A stretch of DNA of 46,294 bases from an uncultured Clostridia bacterium (lineage in GTDB: Bacteria; Bacillota; Clostridia; Oscillospirales; QAMX01): NCBI GenBank assembly GCA_944380935.1, contig CALWJF010000065.1:1-46294 (forward strand), given 5' to 3'. Positions 9,741 to 46,294 of the stretch are shown piece by piece. A program made the position numbers and the translations under genes. The notes beneath the pieces were generated by a model. The model had not been told where the DNA came from, ran no database searches, and was given only the letters and a program-made list of their open reading frames with translations. Positions within the stretch are counted from its first letter, which is position 1. The number at the start of each line of letters is the position of its first letter.

Positions 9741-10319
9741 TTACCCTTCCAGATAATCCTTTATCAGGCCGGCGTAATCGCCGACGGAAATCGTGCCGGT
9801 ATCGGCAGACGCTGCGGACAGATAGCCGGCAGGGTACTTATGGGTTTGTATCTTCTCATTTTCATCGATTAATCTTAGATAGATCGGCGTCAGTACATGG
9901 TTATTCGCATCCAGGAAAACCAGCACATGGTCACCCTTTTTTAAAAGTTCAACGCCGTCCACCCTATAGATTCGGTCGTCCAATTCCCCGCCCTGCTGTA
10001 TACAAACAACACTGTCTTTCTCTTCGCCCTTCAGGGTGTGCTCCACCGAAATGACAGCGTCCGTATACACATCATAGGCTACCATATCGGTATCCGGAGG
10101 GCCGAAGGCTACGGTCCGGGCATCCGCCACGGAAGAAACCGTGCCGATGACAATCGTAGACGCAATGTCGCAGGCTTCCTCAAAGCTGAAATCCGCCCAG
10201 AGATTATGTACTTCGATGATCGGTTTGTCGGAACGCTGCGAAGCCTCCATACCGCACCCGGGAAACAGCGCCAGCAACAGGAACATTACAAAAATCAAGG
10301 AAATCCGTCTGTATTTCAT
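9741..10319 (-). CDS. Hypothetical lipoprotein
   Basis: GGAGGTG RBS, MKYRR basic N-terminus, hydrophobic core, FPGC lipobox. Confidence 0.8.
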   Translation of the reverse strand: MKYRRISLIFVMFLLLALFPGCGMEASQRSDKPIIEVHNLWADFSFEEACDIASTIVIGTVSSVADARTVAFGPPDTDMVAYDVYTDAVISVEHTLKGEEKDSVVCIQQGGELDDRIYRVDGVELLKKGDHVLVFLDANNHVLTPIYLRLIDENEKIQTHKYPAGYLSAASADTGTISVGDYAGLIKDYLEG

Positions 10320-10335
10320 AGCAAACACCTCCCTG

Positions 10336-10935
10336 TCAAGCATAGATGGAACGATAACTGTCTTTATCATAATTCTTCAAAACACGCTGCTGTGAGTTGC
10401 TCGAAAGAACGGGGCTCATCACGTTGTAAGGACAGCTTCCGACACCGCATGCCACAATGTTTACATCATTATGGCAATGTGCCACACCATATGCATGACC
10501 AAGTTCATGTAATATTACACTCTGTAAATCATAAGCGCCAACTTGCGCGGAGTCTGAAAAAGTATGAGAATTTGATAATCGAATCCAGACATACTGCAAA
10601 TCACCCAAGTCCGGATTAGGGGTTATACGTGCAATGGTACCTGTAGGCAGATAATCGAAATATATTCTGCATTGACTGGTTGAATCATTTGTCAAAACAG
10701 AATTTAACAGTTCCGATCCATCGTCAGCTTGAACATAGCTCCATTTTGTCATCGCAGCTTCTGCCTGAGTTTCCTGCTATGATTCCAAGCCATCACAATA
10801 CCATTCGATTATATGCGGCACGCTCGGCCATTCAAACCCCAACGCATACCGCGGGCCCGCTGCATAAACCGCCGTCGAGGAACAGGCGAAAAGGGCGGTT
10901 ATGCAAATGAGCAGAATTTTCATTCCTTTGTTCAT
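10336..10935 (-). pseudogene. Secreted matrixin-like (metzincin, M10-like) zinc metalloprotease with one in-frame TAG at 10777-10779
   Basis: Signal peptide MNKGMKILLICITALFACSSTAVYA; HELGHAYGVAH zinc motif and VMSP Met-turn; the two ORF-track pieces are in the same frame, joined by TAG-QETQAEAA. Confidence 0.8.
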
Positions 10936-11017
10936 TTTACACATGCCTTTTCCAATTTTGCTTCTGCGGACGGGGGATAATCGATAAACCTTCTTCTCAT
11001 ACCGGCAATGTTGTAAC

Positions 11018-11055
11018 TTACATGTAAATTTTACAAAAAATTCAGATTCTGTCAA
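11018..11055 (-). promoter_or_regulatory. Promoter of the metalloprotease operon with a palindrome at the start site
   Basis: TTGACA-N16-TAAAAT followed by perfect palindrome TTACATGTAA (11018-11027). Confidence 0.55.
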
Positions 11056-11164
11056 TATTTTTTGTAGTTTATTTCACTGGCGTTGATGATTTTTACTGTT
11101 TTTTTCCGTTTTCCTTCAAACTGTGTTATATCTGCGCTTATATAAAGTTATATCATTTCTCTAT

Positions 11165-11193
11165 TTGCATTTTCTGTACGCTTCCTTTATAAT
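11165..11193 (+). promoter_or_regulatory. sigma-A promoter of rex
   Basis: TTGCAT-N17-TATAAT. Confidence 0.7.
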
Positions 11194-11225
11194 AAGAAAC
11201 GGAATTTAACCAAAGGAGCAAAAAA

Positions 11226-11846
11226 ATGAGCGTTTCGCCAAAACTGTTTACACGGCTTCCGATGTACCTGCATTACCTCAAGCAGATGCCGGAAGAAGTG
11301 GAAAATATATCCGCCACCGCCATCGCTGCCGCGCTTGGATACGGCGACGTGCAGGTGCGCAAGGACCTGTCCGCCGTCAGCGGCGAAGGCAAGCCGAAAA
11401 CCGGCTATGAGGTTTCCGGCTTAATCCGCGCACTGGAAAATTTTCTGGGCTATAATCAGATCAATACCGCTGTGATCGTCGGCGCCGGGAAGCTGGGCAT
11501 GGCGCTTTATGAATATTCCGGTTTTGCTGAATACGGCCTGCGCATCGCTGCGGCGTTTGATAAGGACCCGGCAAAAACCGGCGTCACTTCCAGCGGTAAA
11601 ATGGTTTATCCGCTGTCGGATTTTGAAGATTTCTGTTCCGATGGGGCAGTCAAAATCGGGATCATCACAACCCCCGCCTCCGCCGCGCAGGAAGCCTGCA
11701 ATCTGATGTGTGCAAACGGCATCGCGGCGATCTGGTGCTTCGCACCGGCGCACATCAACGCCCGCGAAGGCGTTATGGTGCAGTATGAAAATATGGCGAG
11801 TTCCCTCGCCATGCTTTCCAGCCATCTGGCGCGGGAAACGGAATAA
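11226..11846 (+). CDS. rex: Redox-sensing transcriptional repressor Rex
   Basis: RLPMYLHYL, QVRKDLS, GYEV N-terminal motifs; IVGAGKLG Rossmann fold. Confidence 0.93.
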   Translation: MSVSPKLFTRLPMYLHYLKQMPEEVENISATAIAAALGYGDVQVRKDLSAVSGEGKPKTGYEVSGLIRALENFLGYNQINTAVIVGAGKLGMALYEYSGFAEYGLRIAAAFDKDPAKTGVTSSGKMVYPLSDFEDFCSDGAVKIGIITTPASAAQEACNLMCANGIAAIWCFAPAHINAREGVMVQYENMASSLAMLSSHLARETE

Positions 11847-11915
11847 GCGTGCCCTCCGTCCCTGCGGAGTGCTGTGTTTGCATTTTTATACAAAATCCCG
11901 GAAAGGAGCTTTCGG

Positions 11916-12806
11916 ATGTTATTTACCAATCAGGCGCATCACTGTTTTGCAAAAGACCCGGCTGTTGTCCGCTTTGGCCGGCAGTATTTCCTCTACTACT
12001 CCATGCTGCACGATGATCAATCTTTCGGCGTCGGGATCGCAGTTTCCCCGGATATGGAAAATTGGGCCTGTGCCGGAGAAATCGAACAGACACAGCCCTG
12101 CGAAAGCCAGGGGATTGCCGCCCCGGCCGCGATCATGTTAGATGGGCGCATCCATTTGTTTTACCAGACTTATGGGAACGGACGGCTGGATGCAATTTGC
12201 CACGCGGTGAGTACAGACGGCTTCCATTTTGAAAAAAATCCTGAAAACCCCGTCTTCCGTCCCAGTTCGGACTGGTGCTGCGGCCGCGCCATCGACGCCG
12301 ATGTCTGTGTTTGGAACCATATGCTTTATCTCTATTTTGCTACGCGCGATCATGCGTTTGCCATCCAGAAGGTCGGAGGCGCCTGCGCGGCGCTGGATTC
12401 CGGTTTCGGGCGGGATGCGTGGCGGCAGCTTGCACGGCAGACGCTGGTGCATCCGGAATTTTTATGGGAAGGCGCATGCATCGAAGCGCCGGCAACCCTT
12501 GTCCACAACGGACGGCTTTATCTGTTCTACGGCGGCTCGTATAACTGTACGCCCCAGCAGATTGGCTGTGCGGTTTCCGACGACGGAATCTTCTTCCAGA
12601 AGCTCTTTACCGAACCGCTGCTTCCCTGCGGCGGCCCTCAGGACTGGAACAGCAGTGAATCCGGACATCCCTATGCGTTTGCGGATGACGACGGACGTTG
12701 TTATCTATTTTATCAGGGCAGCGCAGATATGGGAAAAACCTGGTATCTAAGTCGCAAAGAAATCCTGTTTGACCACGCGGGTATCCCGCGCCTGGTCGAA
12801 TGCTAA
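11916..12806 (+). CDS. Five-bladed beta-propeller glycoside hydrolase (GH43-like), cytoplasmic
   Basis: KDPAVV, AIDAD, CIEAP acidic motifs; repeated blade motifs (S-D-G-x-F); AAGGAG RBS before ATG 11916. Confidence 0.8.
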   Translation: MLFTNQAHHCFAKDPAVVRFGRQYFLYYSMLHDDQSFGVGIAVSPDMENWACAGEIEQTQPCESQGIAAPAAIMLDGRIHLFYQTYGNGRLDAICHAVSTDGFHFEKNPENPVFRPSSDWCCGRAIDADVCVWNHMLYLYFATRDHAFAIQKVGGACAALDSGFGRDAWRQLARQTLVHPEFLWEGACIEAPATLVHNGRLYLFYGGSYNCTPQQIGCAVSDDGIFFQKLFTEPLLPCGGPQDWNSSESGHPYAFADDDGRCYLFYQGSADMGKTWYLSRKEILFDHAGIPRLVEC

Positions 12807-12839
12807 TCTATACCTATTGATCTACATTCTTTATATTAT

Positions 12840-12878
12840 ACCGCCGTTACGGGAAACTTCACCTGCAACGGCGGTTAT
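12840..12878 (+). terminator. Terminator after the GH43-like gene
   Basis: ACCGCCGTT...AACGGCGGT stem. Confidence 0.65.
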
Positions 12879-12994
12879 TGTGCTTTTTATATCTCATTGT
12901 TTATTTCTTTTACTTTAAAAAGCGTCTTTATTTTAATAAGTGCAAAAATGTGGGGTGAATTTTATAATTCTGTAAATAATTGACAAACTTTTTA

Positions 12995-13023
12995 TTGACT
13001 TTATGGAAATAAACAACTAAAAT
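12995..13023 (+). promoter_or_regulatory. Promoter of CE15-SLH gene 1
   Basis: TTGACT-N17-TAAAAT. Confidence 0.6.
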
Positions 13024-13068
13024 TATAGGCAGCAAAGAATCCCCCAAAAAAATCATAGGAGGAAAAAA

Positions 13069-16000
13069 ATGAAAAAACTAATTGCACTGCTCACTGCGGT
13101 TGCCTTGGTGCTAACGCTGAGTGCACCCGCGCTGGCTACAGACATGTGGCCCGGTTATCCCGGTCCTGATGAGCTGGAAGTCCAGACTACGATCCCGAAT
13201 CCGTTCAAATTCGTTAACGCAGAGAACGATCCGACGGGTGACGGTTATGTTTCCAGCCCTGAAGAATGGGAAGCCCGCCGTGAAGAGATTAAGGATCTCT
13301 TCCAGCACTATTGGTACGGCTATAAGTGGCCCACCGCAGCTAAGGACGTCGTCGGTTATACCGAAGTGCGCGACGATCCGAACACCGCAAGCTTCCGCTC
13401 CGGTTGGAGCACTGCTACGGTAAATCTGGGTGAAGCCTTTGCAGAACTGACCGCCGCCATTCAGGCCGGCGCTGTTCAAGTCGGCGATGCGACGTATGGC
13501 CCGGAAACAGATGAAGCAGCCGCAAAAGCTTTAGCTATTGAAGCTTGGAATGCCGGCTATACCATTACAAAAGAAGTGACTTCCTGGGGATCCACTGTAG
13601 CAATTGAATGCTGCTTTGTGGATCAGACCGGTAAAATCGATGCGGATTCCATCCCGACTGTAACCATTCCGGTTGCACATCAGGTCGTCAAGATTCAAAA
13701 TCCGGAACTGGGGACCGAAGCAAGCTTCGATATTACGGTTACCGTTCCATCTGACGAACAGCGGATCGCCGCCTGGGGCAATGCGACCGATCCGGTCCCG
13801 GTTATGATCGGTATCGGCGGCACCTTCAGCGCAGACGCTTTGCTGAATGCCGGTTACGGTATCGCCACCTTCAAAACCACAACCATCTATCCGGATAAAG
13901 AAGGCGGAAACGGAAACGAAGACCGCAGCGGCGTTTATACGGATCTGTACCCGTATGACCCGACTGTATATGAATATTCCTCCGGCTCCCATATGGCCTG
14001 GGCCTGGGCGGTAAGCCAGATTATCACCGCTTTGGAAAATGCTTCCGGCACAGAGGGTTCGACCGTAACCTTCGGTGAGGAGCTCGGCCTTGACCCGACC
14101 CGTGTCGGCGTTACCGGACATTCCCGTAACGGCCAGACTTCCATCGTTGCCGCTGCATTTGATGAACGCATCGACGTTTGTCTGCCGTCTGAACCGGCAA
14201 CCGGAAGCTATACTTATAAAGTTGAAGGCAAGATCTTCAACTGGAACACTTCCTATTATCCCGCTGCCGACCGCGTTTACGGAAAAACCGGTCCTACTTC
14301 CAACGGCCTTGGCGGCACCTGGTTCTCCGGCGCAGCGGATATCTTTGAAGAAGGCTACCGCGAACTGCTGCTTCCGTTCGACCCGAGCGAACTGATCGCG
14401 CTCGTCGCGCCGCGGCCCTATTTCGTCGTAACCGGTATCCATCAGCACTGGCAGGGCAACGAAGGCATCGTGGCCATCGTCAAAGCTGCTGCTGAAGTTT
14501 ATGATTATATCGGCGAAACGGAAACCGAAAAGAATAACGTCGGCGTACGCGCCCGTGAAAGCTCGCATTCCTTCTACTACAATTTCGACATCCCGTTTGC
14601 GATTGCGATCCTCGACCGCGAATTCAAGCAGGATGAAAGCGATACCGTCCTGCATGTCCAGGATCTCTATCCGGACGGCGACAGCGCGCAGAACATGTCC
14701 TATCCGGCAAAGGATTATGCCAACATCAGCGACATGACCTCGCATCCGTTCGAAATTGCCAGCGCTTATATGCCCTGGTCCAGCCCCAACAAGTACATGC
14801 TGTGGACGGCGCAGGACAACTTCCTGGTCAATCAGAACGTTACCATTACTGCGCATTCTGACGCACCGGATGTAGATCTGTATACCCCGTCCGGAACCAA
14901 AATCGACGCCGTCTCCCATGAGGGTGAAATCCTTACCTTCACGCTGACGCCGGATCAGGCGGTTTACGGCCGTTATGAACTGCGTACAGTTGGTTCCGAT
15001 AAGGAAAACCGCAGCGTGTACTTCTCCGCCATCAGCCTGTCCGACGCACTGCGCCACGGCACCACCAAGGGCGACGAAGGCGAGCAGAACCGTGTGCTCG
15101 GTTTCTCCAGCCGTCTTGCCAATACCGAGCAGGACCCGCCGGTTGTCTACATCAACGGCGTCGCTACGGATATGAACTTTACCAGCAATCGGAATCCGGA
15201 CGAAGAAACCACCCTTTTCGGTTACGGAATCCAGTTCCATGATAAACTGTTCGCCCGCATCGCCAACGAAGGCTGGGACGAGACCGGTACGTTCAGCGTT
15301 AAGAATCTGAAATTCGTTACGCTGCCCGGCTATGTCTTTGAATTCTCCATGGCTGATATTTATGCTTCCGCAGAGGATAACGGCGAAGAAGGCGCGGACA
15401 AGTTTGTAAAAGATATTTCCTGGCCGGTGGAACGCTACAACAACGGTGAAGCCGAAGTCTGGCCGCCGATTCCTTATGGTCCGGAAGAACGGGCCGCTTA
15501 TGAAGCCGGAAAGACCATTTCCAGACCGGAAGGCCCGGACACCTGGACCACGGACTTCGACGCAGAAATCGTTGAAACCCGTGTGGCAGCCGAAGGTTCC
15601 AATGTCGTGATTACTCTGAAGTTCAGCGAAGCGCTGAATAAGGGCGAATATGCTTTCGGCTTTGATTCCGCATCGAACTGGACAACCGCCTGGAATGAAG
15701 CCGGAGACGAACTGTCTATTACCATCAGCGGCAGCAACATTCAGTCGGATGATGGTAAGATGGATCTGATTATCTTCCGTTTGATGGATCTGGAAGACAA
15801 CCTCATCGCCGGTCCGATTCAGATTGAAATAACGCTGCCGGAGGATTATTCCACCGGTACCGATGACACGGAAACCGATACGGATAAGAGCGCTCTGCTG
15901 AACAAGCAGGATCACAACGCTTATGTCAGCGGCTATCCGGACGGCACCATTCGTCCGGACGCCAGCATCACCCGTGCTGAGGTTGCTACGATGTTCTTCA

Positions 16001-16569
16001 GCATTCTGACGGATGAAGCCAAGGCAGAATATGCGACCCGCACCAACAGCTTTACCGACGTTAAGGCGGGCAGCTGGTATGAAGAAGCCGTTTCCACGCT
16101 CAGCGCCATGGGCGTATTCAATGGGTATAAGGACGGCAGCTTTAAGCCGAGCCAGAACATTACCCGCGCTGAATTTGCAACGATCGCCGCCGCGTTCGCG
16201 CAGCAGCAGGCGCAAACCATTACCTTTACAGACGTTGCGGAAAAGCACTGGGCAAGCAAAAACATTTCTCTTGTCGCCGCCAATGGCTGGGTCACCGGTT
16301 ATAAGGACGGCACCTTCCTGCCGAATCAAAATATCACCCGTGCCGAAGCCATGTCGATCATTAACCGGATGCTGGATCGTAATCCGCAGAGCATTGACGA
16401 TCTCTCCGATACGATGAAGACCTGGAGCGATAACGCAAATACGAAGAAGTGGTATTATCTGACGATTCAGGAAGCAACCAACAGTCACGAATATACCCGT
16501 ACTGAAGATGGGTTTGAGGTCTGGGGCAGCGCTTCTGCAACGGAAAACACCCCGGTTTCGGCAGAATAG
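13069..16569 (+). CDS. Secreted CE15 (glucuronoyl esterase-like) alpha/beta hydrolase with C-terminal SLH domains, paralog 1
   Basis: Signal peptide; AWAWAVS, GVTGHSRNGQ, AAAFDERI, LIALVAPRP CE15 motifs; three GYxDG...ITRAE SLH repeats. Confidence 0.8.
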   Translation: MKKLIALLTAVALVLTLSAPALATDMWPGYPGPDELEVQTTIPNPFKFVNAENDPTGDGYVSSPEEWEARREEIKDLFQHYWYGYKWPTAAKDVVGYTEVRDDPNTASFRSGWSTATVNLGEAFAELTAAIQAGAVQVGDATYGPETDEAAAKALAIEAWNAGYTITKEVTSWGSTVAIECCFVDQTGKIDADSIPTVTIPVAHQVVKIQNPELGTEASFDITVTVPSDEQRIAAWGNATDPVPVMIGIGGTFSADALLNAGYGIATFKTTTIYPDKEGGNGNEDRSGVYTDLYPYDPTVYEYSSGSHMAWAWAVSQIITALENASGTEGSTVTFGEELGLDPTRVGVTGHSRNGQTSIVAAAFDERIDVCLPSEPATGSYTYKVEGKIFNWNTSYYPAADRVYGKTGPTSNGLGGTWFSGAADIFEEGYRELLLPFDPSELIALVAPRPYFVVTGIHQHWQGNEGIVAIVKAAAEVYDYIGETETEKNNVGVRARESSHSFYYNFDIPFAIAILDREFKQDESDTVLHVQDLYPDGDSAQNMSYPAKDYANISDMTSHPFEIASAYMPWSSPNKYMLWTAQDNFLVNQNVTITAHSDAPDVDLYTPSGTKIDAVSHEGEILTFTLTPDQAVYGRYELRTVGSDKENRSVYFSAISLSDALRHGTTKGDEGEQNRVLGFSSRLANTEQDPPVVYINGVATDMNFTSNRNPDEETTLFGYGIQFHDKLFARIANEGWDETGTFSVKNLKFVTLPGYVFEFSMADIYASAEDNGEEGADKFVKDISWPVERYNNGEAEVWPPIPYGPEERAAYEAGKTISRPEGPDTWTTDFDAEIVETRVAAEGSNVVITLKFSEALNKGEYAFGFDSASNWTTAWNEAGDELSITISGSNIQSDDGKMDLIIFRLMDLEDNLIAGPIQIEITLPEDYSTGTDDTETDTDKSALLNKQDHNAYVSGYPDGTIRPDASITRAEVATMFFSILTDEAKAEYATRTNSFTDVKAGSWYEEAVSTLSAMGVFNGYKDGSFKPSQNITRAEFATIAAAFAQQQAQTITFTDVAEKHWASKNISLVAANGWVTGYKDGTFLPNQNITRAEAMSIINRMLDRNPQSIDDLSDTMKTWSDNANTKKWYYLTIQEATNSHEYTRTEDGFEVWGSASATENTPVSAE

Positions 16570-16600
16570 TCCTAAACTGCATATTTTTACAACAAATTGT

Positions 16601-16637
16601 ATCGCGTGCAGACAAAATCTGCACGCGATATTTTTTT
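16601..16637 (+). terminator. Terminator between the two CE15-SLH genes
   Basis: ATCGCGTGCAGA-CAAAA-TCTGCACGCGAT followed by T7. Confidence 0.8.
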
Positions 16638-16719
16638 ACAATAACTTTGCAAAAAAATGTTTTTTAACAAAATTTATCCATTGTAACGGTTTATTTTATG
16701 AAATAAAAACAAATTTTTA

Positions 16720-16747
16720 TTGACTTTTTTTAAAATTCGTTTAAAAT
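16720..16747 (+). promoter_or_regulatory. Promoter of CE15-SLH gene 2
   Basis: TTGACT-N16-TAAAAT, same context as paralog 1. Confidence 0.55.
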
Positions 16748-16791
16748 AGGTGGTAGTCTTCTTTTTTAAAAAACACATAGGAGGGAAAGAC

Positions 16792-19700
16792 ATGAAAAAA
16801 CTTGTTGCGCTGTTAATTACAGCCGCAATGATCGTCACGCTCGGTGCGCCTGCTTTCGCAGCGGCTCCGCTCGACGGATATCCGGGCATTGACGAACTGG
16901 AAGCGATCGATACGATTCCAAACCCGTTTAAGTTCTTCGATGCATCGAACGACCCGACGGGCGACGGCTATGTTTCCACCCCGGAGGAGTGGGAAGCACG
17001 CCGTGAGGAAATCAAAGACCTTGTACAGCATTACTGGCTTGGTTATCAGTGGGAAACCGATCCGGCGGATGTTTCCGGCGGTTCTGTGCCTGAAGAAATT
17101 GCGAATACGGTATCGTTCGGCGGTTTCTGGGGCATGGGCGGTGCTACCATTAACATCGGTGAGGAGTTCACCAAACTCGTTGCCGCCATCCAGACCGAAG
17201 GCGTAACGGTCGGTGAAGATACTTACGGACCGGAAGCTGACGAAGAAGCTGCAACAGCTTTGGCAATCGAAGCCTGGAATGCAGGCTACAGCGTCCATTA
17301 GGTTGCATCCGGATGGATGGGCTGGGGCGCCGGTGAAGGCGACGCCGTCATGAAAGAGCAGACCGGCGAAATCGATGCCGACAGTATTCCTGGCACAACC
17401 AAAATTGTTTATTACTACAATGTAATCGTAAAGAATCCCGATACGGGCGTCGAAGCGCAGTTCCGTATTAATATTTCTGCGCCGACTGCGCAGCAAAAGC
17501 TCGATGTCTGGGGCGATGAAAATGCACAGGTTCCGTTTGTCATCGACGTCGGCGGCGCTGCAGCATTCTCCGCTGCAAACCTGAACCCGCAGGGCTATGC
17601 GCTGGTTTCTTTCACTCCGACGGATATTTATCCGGATGATTCTTCTGAATCCGATGGCATCAACCGTGACGGTGTTTATACCGAACTGTATCCCTATGAT
17701 GCCGATGAATATGAATATGCATCCGGCGCATTACTCGCCTGGGCCTGGGGCGTCAGCCAGATCATCTCTGCCATGGAGCAGCCCTCCGCTACGGAAGGCT
17801 CCGATATGACCTTCGGTGAGGAAGTCGGCCTTGACCCGACACGTACGGTTGTAACCGGACACTCCCGTTATGGTAAAGCTGCCATGTTTGCTGCTGCCTT
17901 TGACGAGCGTATTTCCATCTGCTGCCCGTCTGAACCGGGCGGATCGGGTATCCAGTCCAACCGTTATAAGGTAGAAGGCAAGATCTTCAACTGGAATACC
18001 TCTTATTATCCGAAGGCAGACCGTGTTTACGGAAAGACCGAGACCCCGACCGTTTCTTATGGTTCCGGTAACTCCTGGTTCCCGGAGACTGCTGCTATGT
18101 TTGTAAATAAGGACAACCAGATCCCCTTCGATTCTGATGAAATCATTGCTCTGGTTGCTCCGCGTCCCTTCTTCGTTGTCAGCGGTATTGATACCCACTG
18201 GCTCGGAAACGAAGGCGGCGTTGCAAGCGTTATGGCTGCTGCGGAAGTCTACGACTACATAGGCGAAACTGAAATTGAGAAGACGAATATCGCCATCCGC
18301 TGCCGTCAGAGCGATCACGTATTCTATCCGCAGGATTTCTGCTTCGCGCTGGCCATTATGGACCGTGAATTCAAGCAGGATGAAAGCGATACCACGCTGC
18401 ATGTTCAGGATCTGTTCCCGACGGGCACGGACTATCGCTCCATGTCCTATCCGGCAGCAGATTATGATTACCTCAGCGACATCACCTCGCATCCGTTTGA
18501 AATTTCCAGCTATTATATGCCCTGGTCCAATGCAAACAAATATGTTCTGTGGACGGCACAGGATAACTTCCTGACCAACCACGACGTTACCATTACCGCT
18601 TATTCCGACGCACCGGAAGTTGTGCTTTATACTCCGGATGGCGTGATGATTGAGGCTGCCAGCTCCAGCGGCGAAGAGTTCATCTTTGAACTGAGCGCAG
18701 ACCAGGCGGTTTACGGCCGTTATGAACTGTGCACAGTCGGTTCCGATAAGGAAAACCGCAGCGTATATTTCTCCGCCATCAGCCTGTCCGATGCACTGCG
18801 TCACGGCACCACCAAAGGCGATGAAGGCGAAGAAAACCGTGTGCTCGGCTTCTCCAGCCGTCTTGCCAACAACGAGCAGGACCCGCCGGTTGTTTATATC
18901 GACGGCGTTGCTACAGATATGAGCTTTACCGCCGGCCGTATGCCGGAAGAAGAAACTACGCTGATGTCCTATGGTATCCAGTTCCATGATAAGCTTTTCG
19001 TCCGTATTGCGAACGAAGGCTGGGATGAGACCAAGACTTTCAGTGTAAAGAACCTGAAGTTCGTCACGCTGCCGGATTATGTCTTTGAATTCTCCATGGC
19101 AGACATTTACGCTTCCGCTGAGAATAACGGTAAGGAAGGCGCTTCCAAATTCACCAAGGCAATTTCCTGGCCGGTTGAACGCTACAACAATGGCGATGCA
19201 GAAGTCTGGCCGCCGATTCCGAACACGCTGGAAGAACGTCAGATTCTTGAAGCCGGCGGAACCGTTGAACGTCCGGAAGCTCCGGCTCCCTGGACCACGG
19301 ACTTCGATGCAGAAATTGTCAATTCCTATGCAGAACTCGATCTTGCTAAATTGAATATCGTAATCGAATTCAGCGAACCGCTGAATGTCGGTGAATATGC
19401 TTTCGGCCTGGACGTCGCCTCCGATTGGCAGACTTCCTGGAATGAAGCAGGCGATACTTTGACGATTTCCATCATCCGCGATGATCTGGCAGACGCTGAC
19501 GTCGCCAACATCATCATCTTCCGCCTGATGGATCTGGAAGGCAACCTCATTGCCGGCCCGATCGAATTGAGCGTTGATATTCCTGAGACTCCGACCATTG
19601 ATTTCGATGAGATCAAGCCGGTTGAAGGCTCCATCACCGTTTCTGTTGTTGATTCTGCAGATAATGCTGCAATCAGCGGCGCAAAAGTCAAGCTTTATGA

Positions 19701-20535
19701 AGATAAGGCTCTGCTTGGTACGTATATAACCAATTCCGATGGTAAGGCGTACATTGACGAGCTCGTACCGGGCGATTACAGCATCGTTCTTGGCGAAGTC
19801 CCGGATGGCTATGAGCTCAACAATACGGCCTATCCGGTTACGATTTCTGCCGGCAGCGAAAAAGCTTTGACGATTTCCGTCAATCGTAAGGTCGTTGTGG
19901 AAGAGCCGGATGAAGAAGTACCTGAGCTGGATAAGTCTGCACTCCTGGATAAGACCAGTGGTGACGCTTATCTCTCCGGTTATGAAGACGGCACCATCCG
20001 TCCGAACGCAGACATCACCCGTGCAGAAGTTGCCGTGATGTTCTACCGCGTCCTGTCCGACGAGGCGTTGGCACAGTATTCCACCAACTACAACACCTTC
20101 ACCGACGTTGATCGTGATGCCTGGTATAATACAGCGGTGTCCACCCTCTCTTCCATGGGTGCAATCAACGGTTATCCGAACAATACCTTTGCTCCGGATG
20201 CCAAGATCACCCGTGCTGAATTCGCTACTATTGCAGCAGCATTTGCCGAGGCCACTTCCGGCACCGCTTCCTTCAGCGATGTCTCCGGGCACTGGGCAAG
20301 CGAATATATCCGCATTGCTGCTGCCAACAACTGGATCAGCGGTTACGAAGATGGTTCCTTCCGTCCGGATCAGAATATCACCCGTGCAGAGGCGATTTCC
20401 ATCATCAACCGTATGCTGGGCCGCAGCGTATCTTCTGCGGACGAGCTCCCCGAAGGAATGACCACCTATTCGGATAACCTGGATACAACGAAATGGTATT
20501 ATCTGGATGTCCAGATCGCTGCCAACAAGATCTAA
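16792..20535 (+). pseudogene. Secreted CE15-like esterase + CnaB/SpaA-like domain + SLH domains, paralog 2, with one in-frame TAG at 17299-17301 (codon 170)
   Basis: ORFs 16750..17301 and 17317..20535 are in frame, joined by TAG-VASGW, and colinear with paralog 1; canonical GHSRYGK and SEPGGSG motifs. Confidence 0.85.
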
Positions 20536-44670: not shown

Positions 44671-45182
44671 TTAACGGCCTGATTCCCTATAATATTGTGC
44701 CTGCATATCAAAAAGTTCTTTATATAATCCTTTCCGGCTCATCAGCGTCTCATGCGTTCCGTATTCTGCTAACTCTCCTTTCTCAAATACAGCCACCTTG
44801 TCACAGAATTTTGTACTGGACATTCTGTGCGATATGTACACAGCGGTTTTACCTTTTACTATTTCATTAAAATTGCGATACATTTCGTATTCCGCCCTAG
44901 GGTCCCAGGCAGCAGTCGGTTCATCCAAAATAACAAAAGAGGCATCCCTATAAAGGGCACGCGCCAATGCGATTTTTTGCCCCTCTCCACCTGAAGGCTC
45001 AAATCCATCTTCCGCAAAATTTTTATACAGTATGGTATCTATTCCCTTTGGCAGCGTTTGCACTTTCTCGGAAAGCCCTACACGGGCAAGTACAAACTTC
45101 ATCTTTTTTTCTTCATAGGGGAGTGTTAGCACAATATTATCTTTTAAAGAAAAAGAAAACAACCGATAATCCTGATAAACCC
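44671..45182 (-). pseudogene. C-terminal fragment of an ABC exporter ATPase
   Basis: Starts at the Q-loop (VYQDY); has SGGEGQK, ILDEPT, ISHR; lacks Walker A and TM domain. Confidence 0.85.
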
Positions 45183-45199
45183 TTATTCCCTTTTCCGGG

Positions 45200-45381
45200 C
45201 ATAAAAAAGCCGTAAAGACAACACAAAAACAAAAGGCAGTCGGTTCAACTGTCTGAAAAAAATTTCACGTTCTGTTTTGTGTTCCTTTACGGCTTATTTA
45301 CTGATATACGGCTTATACATTGCACAAACTCTCCATTTATTCTGTTCAATTCCAGTATACCATAGTTTGATACATTTACAA
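45200..45381 (-). promoter_or_regulatory. Orphaned promoter, leader peptide (MYKPYISK) and terminator attenuator
   Basis: TTGTAA-N16-TATACT; GGAGAG RBS; uORF 45294-45320; long hairpin AAGCCGTAAAG..ACACAAAA / TTTTGTGT..CTTTACGGCTT with U tract. Confidence 0.6.
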
Positions 45382-45559
45382 GAGGGAACATGCGCCGTTA
45401 TCAAAAAAAGCGGACAGATTCGGTGTGCGCCGCCAGGAATCCCCGAGCAGATAAAAAAATCCGGGGGGCATCCGCATCCGGATCTTTATCGATCTTTACA
45501 AATTGAACTTGCCGGCCGTATCCACACAGAGAATACCTGCAGCAAAAAACCGGACGGGC

Positions 45560-45789
45560 ATCTGGGCGGGCCGCTGTCTCAGATGCTGTATCATGGGGGC
45601 CGCCTGTCATAAAAACCGCCTGCCCAGTCCATCAAAACAAAAAAAGACGATATTCTGATATCCTTTACTGCGTTTTTCTTTTAAGATCGGGAGCGCTGCG
45701 TTTTGATTCGGCGCACCAAGAAATTCTGCAAGCGCGGCAGAAACAGCAGCGATGCTGTTGCGAAAATCCGGCGCAAGGAATGGTTTCAT
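45560..45789 (-). pseudogene. N-terminal fragment of an alkaline phosphatase-superfamily (type I phosphodiesterase-like) gene
   Basis: PDFRNSI...NIVFFCFDGLG N-terminal motif, then TGA at 45607; no catalytic PSxT motif follows. Confidence 0.55.
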
Positions 45790-46184
45790 GCTTGTCACGA
45801 TTTTACGGCTGCGTTCATTCAAAACATTCCTCTGTTTCTTCATCCTCAACTCCCCTTTTCCCCCAGAACGGTGGGATTCAAATCAAAGAAAGTCGTTGAA
45901 ACACGGTTCCTCTTATCGTTTTGGCCAGTTTGCGCAATTGTTTCCATATTGCGGGAAACAAGGGACCAGAATATAAGAAAACCTGCGGAAAGCAAATCAC
46001 TTACCGCAGGTCTGTCGGTGACCAAAATTATTGGCAGTTTCAGCACGGGTACCCACACAAAATGAAAGAAAAGACCCGTGCTTGGCGATCCCCATTATTA
46101 GAAACGACAAACTAAATATAGTATGGCTTTAACTTTGAGCGAATAACTCATCTATATAATCAAATTTAATAAAGATTAACTAAC

Positions 46185-46276
46185 GCTTTCCCTATCTCTC
46201 CATAGTTCTCCCTAAGTGCTACCCGTATTACATTTTTGAAACTTTTGCTTTCCCTAACTCGCCTATGTTTCCCTAA
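46185..46276. repeat. Two imperfect ~30-bp direct repeats, each with two TCCCTA cores
   Basis: GCTTTCCCTATCTCTCCATAGTTCTCCCTAA (46185-46215) vs GCTTTCCCTAACTCGCCTATGTTTCCCTAA (46247-46276). Confidence 0.65.
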
Positions 46277-46294
46277 CACGCCGTAAGTTTAGTA

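Follow-up and report, generated by a model that had tools for sequence, protein, structure and literature searches.

Are in-frame TAG codons in otherwise open bacterial genes decoded as an amino acid, or do they simply mark broken genes? The question is raised by a 46,294-nucleotide stretch of DNA (hereafter the window) from an uncultured Clostridia bacterium (GenBank assembly GCA_944380935.1, contig CALWJF010000065.1), in which two genes for secreted proteins are each interrupted by one TAG: gene A, which encodes a small zinc metalloprotease-like protein, and gene B, which encodes a CE15 glucuronoyl esterase with SLH domains. Some Firmicutes decode TAG as pyrrolysine (Pyl), and amber suppressor tRNAs are known both of the supF/supU type in E. 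coli and from phages recoded at TAG. An earlier reading made from the letters of the window (the sequence-only reading) had proposed amber readthrough, by pyrrolysine or a suppressor, and had called plain nonsense mutation at least as likely. Our results indicate that both TAGs are very probably recent single-base nonsense mutations (TGG to TAG) that arose within the species or strain, in an organism that uses TAG as a normal stop.

The window corresponds to contig C65 in a metagenome-assembled genome (MAG; G000) of 1.80 Mb in 113 contigs, which is 87% complete with 1.65% contamination. For comparison we used a 97%-complete genome of the same genus (G001), whose contig C6 has the window's gene order, together with three protein alleles of gene A from ENA and JGI/IMG records (P0001, P0124 and P0125). 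The metagenome runs that contain window sequence come mostly from chicken gut. Four of them, X1 to X4, were compared with the window; X1 has the largest share (0.70), X3 belongs to a different study, and uncovered parts of the window in X2–X4 are uninformative.

Gene A starts with ATG at 10935–10933, meets TAG at 10779–10777 (codon 53) and is then open to TGA at 10338–10336, the TAG being its sole lesion. Read through, it has 199 codons, exactly the length of the three alleles recorded elsewhere, all of which are intact, 94–95% identical to it and carry Trp at residue 53. The orthologue in G001 (81% identical) likewise has TGG at the site, reading CDGLEPWQETQ against CDGLES*QETQ here (asterisk, stop). 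The 146 residues that follow the TAG are identical to those of P0001 and show 0–3 differences across the three intact alleles. HExxHxxGxxH is the zinc site of metzincins and M10-like peptidases, and the corresponding HELGHAYGVAH of gene A is invariant in six aligned sequences; against the Pfam profile Peptidase_M10 gene A scores 23.5 bits, marginally under the cut-off of 24.

Ahead of the TAG of gene A, the 7–8 residues by which the window allele differs from the three intact alleles all lie in the first 42 (signal peptide and N-terminus; window 10780–10935). These changes are derived in the window allele, because G001 sides with the other alleles at several of the sites, and they could stem from a burst of mutation confined to this region or from a recombined tract. 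In the G001 orthologue (L021, G001:C6:33137-33820, minus strand) the reading frame shifts between signal peptide and mature part, either through an independent lesion of the sister species' copy or through an error of that assembly.

Gene B runs from ATG at 16792 through its TAG at codon 170 and stays open to TAA at 20533–20535, again with the TAG as sole lesion. The reading frames thus confirm the initial description of two secreted-protein genes with one in-frame TAG each, at codons 53 and 170, and no other lesion. The 1247 codons read through compare with 1259–1272 in the G001 orthologue and encode a signal peptide, an N-terminal extension of ~200 residues, a CE15 domain (132.5 bits to PF22244 GCE_fung, whose cut-off is 27), a SpaA-like domain and three SLH domains. 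CE15 enzymes carry their nucleophile in the motif G-x-S-R-x-G, and the translation contains GHSRYG, the predicted counterpart.

In G001, gene B is 83% identical and free of stops, and the codon at the site is TGG (GYSVHW; GYSVH* here). Across 60 CE15 homologues the same column holds Tyr 48 times, Trp and Ile three times each, Val twice, and Gln, Glu, Lys and Phe once each; the three homologues with Trp include both closest matches (82% identity). A sense allele also occurs among the metagenomes: a 238-base contig of X3 (17152–17389, depth 4.7) has a single difference from the window, a G at 17300, and so reads TGG. Exact-pattern scans of metagenome contigs for either TAG site, with R at the middle base, returned no match for either. 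The sequence-only reading had set the gene B TAG against a Lys codon of the neighboring CE15 paralogue 1 (P0033), which is 59% identical to gene B across the first 500 residues. That alignment holds, but it is a poor guide to the original residue, since the orthologues have Trp.

A small CATCC-GGAT-GGATG hairpin had also been pointed out downstream of the gene B TAG. The 5-bp hairpin is present, although it does not rise above chance and is not kept in G001: the 65-base region that contains it is no stabler than shuffled sequences (z = -0.71), 44 of 200 shuffles folding as well, and we rejected it as a readthrough signal. The region after the gene A TAG gave a folding z of +0.48.

For both genes, TGG to TAG is a G-to-A transition on the coding strand. 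Judged from these comparisons, the mutations look young, because the ratio of nonsynonymous to synonymous substitution (dN/dS) between species is low, gene A downstream of the TAG is the same as in P0001, and the X3 contig differs solely at the stop. The interspecies dN/dS is 0.07–0.15 with dS above 1, and at such dS a comparison of the parts upstream and downstream of the TAG has no power to detect recent relaxation. Conservation of the TAGs among strains, which the sequence-only reading had put forward as a test, was not observed: the three gene A alleles all have Trp and X3 reads TGG in gene B. Its more cautious statement, that plain nonsense was at least as likely, is supported, and relatives carry TGG, one of the source codons that it had proposed.

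In this organism TAG serves as a normal stop. Gene calling by a simple codon-bias method gave 1496 genes in the MAG, of which 855 end in TAA, 424 in TGA and 149 in TAG (149/1428, or ~10% of genes with a stop), while 68 run off contig ends. Window genes that end in TAG include a response regulator, a histidine kinase, an ABC-FtsX fusion, an SSF transporter and CE15 paralogue 1, and their Pfam domains extend to the usual ends. Across 340 orthologue pairs, TAG is the stop in 33 G001 genes and 31 G000 genes, and turnover is symmetric, with 22 changes away from TAG and 20 towards it. Backup stops, scored as the distance to the next in-frame stop, were not enriched near TAG-ended genes compared with others.

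The search for TAG-decoding machinery that the sequence-only reading had suggested turned up neither pylTSBCD nor a tRNA with anticodon CUA in the MAG. ARAGORN identified 36 tRNAs and the transfer-messenger RNA in the whole 87%-complete assembly, none of them with anticodon CUA, and lowering its threshold to 90% likewise gave no CUA tRNA. Of the 998 calls made at 80%, two carried the label Pyl(cta); we discarded both as noise, since one is contained in a coding gene, the other runs into a gene start, and no Rfam tRNA model matched either at E ≤ 10. The best match in G000 to PylS (TIGR02367) reached 25.7 bits against a cut-off of 178, and those to PylB, PylC and PylD reached 74.3 of 348, 40.1 of 248 and 18.9 of 150 bits, all under their cut-offs, which the positive control Methanosarcina (M. 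acetivorans) passes. Searches of 25 genomes from the same family and order, one of them the 97%-complete congener, found neither PylS (E ≤ 1e-10) nor PylD. G000 has no match to the methyltransferase MttB (PF06253); MtbB and MtmB were outside this search.

How common are split genes in this genome, and by which stops are they split? A junction scan returned 130 same-frame pairs of open reading frames (ORFs) across one stop (TAA 95, TGA 22, TAG 13). Fifty of these were run through Pfam with the stop read as X, comprising all 13 TAG junctions and the 8 TGA and 29 TAA junctions without a strong ribosome-binding site; the other 80 (14 TGA and 66 TAA), which have strong ribosome-binding sites, fell outside the Pfam test. 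Two of the 50 are real split genes, both by TAG: gene B and a GH127 beta-L-arabinofuranosidase (L037, C93:6283-7233, minus strand, with its stop at C93:6691-6693). The Pfam middle domain of the latter spans the TAG, and the site is TAT (Tyr) in the 86%-identical orthologue from G001. No Pfam domain spans the stop in the remaining 48 tested junctions, four of which lack any Pfam family (L026, L029, L055 and L059). The TAG junction L026 was rejected as a split gene, as the G001 orthologue also ends there with TAG, and the TAG junction L029 has no counterpart in G001.

An orthologue scan gave the same two genes. We searched the MAG by tblastn with ORFs from ~770 kb of G001 (~36% of its sequence); this took in 137,519 aligned residues from 371 orthologous ORFs. 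When good identity was required on both sides, six stop positions were left, of which two are internal, the TAGs of gene B and of the GH127 gene; by eye, the others (C27:56826 TGA, C53:4961 TAA, C53:5015 TGA and C93:3498 TAG) belong to 5′ leaders just upstream of a conserved start Met. A crude test detected no frameshift in the 371 orthologous ORFs, and the reverse comparison of 234 G000 genes with the first 374 kb of G001 detected no internal stop in G001. Pseudogenes in this MAG are few. Gene A entered the count from the sequence-only reading, as the scans miss short, low-scoring genes. A coding-potential scan for short split pieces proved insensitive, missing gene A (low codon score) while returning 17 extra candidates. 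Shine-Dalgarno strength did not discriminate split from adjacent genes either (no match in 492 of the 1441 genes scored) and served solely for choosing the junctions for Pfam.

Several of these results weigh against recent nonsense mutation in an organism that stops normally at TAG. All three internal stops found genome-wide (gene A, gene B and GH127) are TAG, no TAA or TGA lesion having appeared in the 50 of 130 junctions tested or the 371 orthologous ORFs, and the replaced residues are all aromatic (W, W, Y). The release factor 1 (RF1) gene prfA was not found in the MAG. At 87% completeness, and with tRNAs often missing from assemblies, the MAG leaves room for a suppressor tRNA, and the window's own record is the single source of the TAG allele of gene B (A at 17300). 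The sequence-only reading had taken a lack of excess of TAG among split genes as a mark against decoding, and on that point, with a count of three of three and n = 3, the outcome is not clean. TGG becomes a stop by transition in two ways (TAG, TGA) and TAT or TAC by transversion in two ways (TAA, TAG); on our own calculation, with equal rates assumed, the chance that W, W and Y codons all yield TAG is ~1 in 8. Because n = 3 and the source codons give this chance, three of three carries little weight, and the aromatic residues at all three sites are accounted for by the fact that three of the eight sense neighbors of TAG are Tyr or Trp codons. As for RF1, prfA exceeds its cut-off in 22 of 25 related genomes and in G001, and prfB is present in the MAG on contig C32. 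Yet prfA of G001 lies in a 20-kb region (L081, G001:C3:130200-150199) that has no nucleotide match in the MAG except a cross-hit to prfB and whose ORFs of at least 150 amino acids have no orthologue there, with three weak paralogue-level matches besides that of prfA to prfB. Because this entire neighborhood is missing, the absence of prfA most likely reflects an unassembled region and not gene loss, and the unchanged TAG usage relative to the congener argues against a long-standing loss of RF1.

These points bear on the decoding explanations in different ways. If TAG were leaky, being read at a useful rate by suppressor or near-cognate tRNAs because RF1 is weak or lost or because a suppressor gene sits on a mobile element or in the 13% missing from the assembly, some full-length protein would be made from the interrupted genes, and the run of TAGs at W, W and Y together with the missing prfA in an 87%-complete MAG would fit. 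We regard this as very unlikely given that no tRNA-CUA was found, that the gap around prfA looks like one of assembly, that stop usage is undiminished with symmetric turnover relative to an RF1-bearing congener and shows no backup-stop enrichment, that other strains have TGG at the sites, and that three TAGs of three would arise by chance about once in eight. Amber suppressors would make TAG tolerable at former Tyr or Trp codons, but no CUA tRNA was found here and TAG stop use is unchanged relative to the congener. An extension of the idea, in which the lineage terminates poorly at UAG so that changes from TGG or TAY to TAG are near-neutral and are read as Trp, Tyr or Gln in an early stage of amber-codon capture, would explain why internal stops are all TAG and fall at aromatic positions; we find it more improbable still. 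Were it true, this gut Firmicute would have been caught as it begins to reassign its amber codon. Insertion of pyrrolysine at both TAGs by a pylTSBCD system, which draws on the identity of the interrupting codon and on its decoding as Pyl in some Firmicutes, we hold to be practically negligible: PylS, PylB, PylC and PylD are under their cut-offs, PylS and PylD were found in none of the 25 relatives, neither a tRNA-CUA nor an MttB-type methyltransferase was found, the orthologues have Trp at the sites, and TAG is not depleted as a stop.

Other explanations concern the alleles themselves. The A at 17300 could be an assembly or consensus error, or a minority allele in an organism that mostly has TGG. 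X3 reads G there, and the split pieces of gene B are recorded only from the window's own contig. X1 has a share of 0.70 and covers the greater part of that 250-base bin, yet none of its contigs spans 17300, which would fit a bubble of two alleles (TAG and TGG). We nevertheless consider this unlikely, because the same MAG holds a second and a third independent TAG lesion and random assembly error is an improbable way to create a stop three times. For gene A, the 138-residue piece downstream of the TAG is recorded from two contigs, the window being one, and X1 covers the bin 10551–10801 without a differing letter, exact cover of 10778 not being shown. A different proposal accepts the lesions and makes them selected knock-outs, the loss of surface or secreted proteins being advantageous as an escape from phage or host recognition or as a cost saving on a substrate-free diet. 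Two of the three lesions are in secreted or surface proteins within 6.5 kb, two of the three are in plant cell-wall enzymes (CE15 and GH127), other pseudogenes are few (two internal stops in 371 orthologous ORFs), and the G001 orthologue of gene A is independently frameshifted. Yet n = 3, GH127 gave no signal of surface exposure in the data examined, the same lesions do not recur (all three other gene A alleles are intact), and the dN/dS comparison is powerless for selection; we think this proposal unlikely.

Under recent nonsense mutation, termination at codon 53 would leave gene A with at most a 52-residue signal-peptide stub, and termination at codon 170 would leave gene B with a secreted N-terminal fragment of 169 residues that lacks the esterase, SpaA and SLH parts. 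Restarts downstream would in either gene lack a signal peptide, as with one from the ATG at 17317 of gene B. Both genes would in effect be knocked out, with full-length product presumably absent. Intact paralogues, namely the adjoining CE15 paralogue 1 and an M10-like protein on contig C39 of G000 (40% identical to gene A), may buffer the loss and are probably the reason that it is tolerated.

Strain-level nonsense alleles of this type are ordinary. The two genes share with ordinary nonsense pseudogenes a stop one base away from a sense codon (TGG, TAY), intact alleles in conspecifics and in the sister species, an undecayed remainder and the presence of paralogues, and differ from them in nothing essential; what is unusual here is that all three lesions are TAG. 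With the Pyl system, in which pylTSBCD accompanies methylamine methyltransferases, they share an in-frame TAG in an otherwise open gene, but here the genes are an esterase and a protease and not methyltransferases, pyl genes and tRNA-CUA were not found, and orthologues have Trp. None of the defining features of a Pyl system that we tested was found, and of those of TAG reassignment the single one in view is the missing prfA, most likely an assembly gap. The Introduction of the report on the Codetta screen states that known bacterial code changes all reassign UGA (PMC8629427). In its account of some yeasts, calls of UAG or UGA as Trp are ascribed to Pfam alignments across pseudogene stops, with no suppressor tRNA (PMC8629427). 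The TAG aligned to Trp without a suppressor tRNA resembles those cases as that account gives them, although they are yeasts and here the stops lie in three genes of one bacterial MAG. The value of the present case is mainly as a negative result: an in-frame TAG facing Trp in a MAG is easily mistaken for recoding, whereas here strain-level nonsense alleles are the better description. In annotation, each of the two loci is best entered as one pseudogene or disrupted gene and not as two ORFs.

Table. Positions of the interrupted genes, their stops and adjoining features in the window.
Feature	Position	Strand	Remarks
Gene A, secreted small zinc metalloprotease-like, 199 codons read through, split at codon 53	10336..10935	-	Signal peptide and HELGHAYGVAH
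Gene A in-frame TAG	10777..10779	-	TGG in G001 orthologue; Trp in 3/3 intact alleles from other assemblies
Lipoprotein-like ORF directly downstream of gene A	9741..10343	-	Without Pfam family
CE15 paralogue 1, intact, GCE_fung and 3 SLH, ends in TAG	13069..16569	+	Just upstream of gene B
Gene B, CE15 glucuronoyl esterase, 1247 codons read through, split at codon 170	16792..20535	+	
Gene B in-frame TAG	17299..17301	+	TGG in G001; X3 reads G at 17300; aromatic family column
Hairpin CATCC-GGAT-GGATG, 5 bp	17306..17319	+	After gene B TAG; not kept in G001

Several minor observations concern the surroundings of these genes. The protease and the lipoprotein-like ORF form a repeated two-gene cassette, found also on contig C39 of G000 (L023, L057) and twice in tandem on contig C18 of G001 (L022, L024). 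Long antisense open frames lie on the minus strand opposite the CE15 genes (13531–16488, 985 amino acids, and 17731–20292, 853 amino acids); they look like by-products of codon bias and not genes, and the gene caller kept the sense frames. In the comparison of the runs with the window, apparent joints from 17800 back to 14068 and, as a skip, from 15945 to 16450 look like effects of the paralogous CE15 genes, of the SLH repeats and of the end of the compared stretch, and nothing was drawn from them.

Gene decay of another kind, by truncation and not by nonsense, is seen at the far end of the window, where a C-terminal remnant of an ATP-binding cassette (ABC) transporter ATPase (44671–45264, minus strand) matches positions 80–137 only of the Pfam ABC_tran profile, its N-terminal part being absent. 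Beyond it, ~1 kb (45265–46294) is without any long ORF. Elsewhere in the MAG, a 152-residue ORF directly upstream of recG (L054, G000:C25:17348-18346) has only the N-terminal DUF772 transposase domain and is possibly a transposase remnant.

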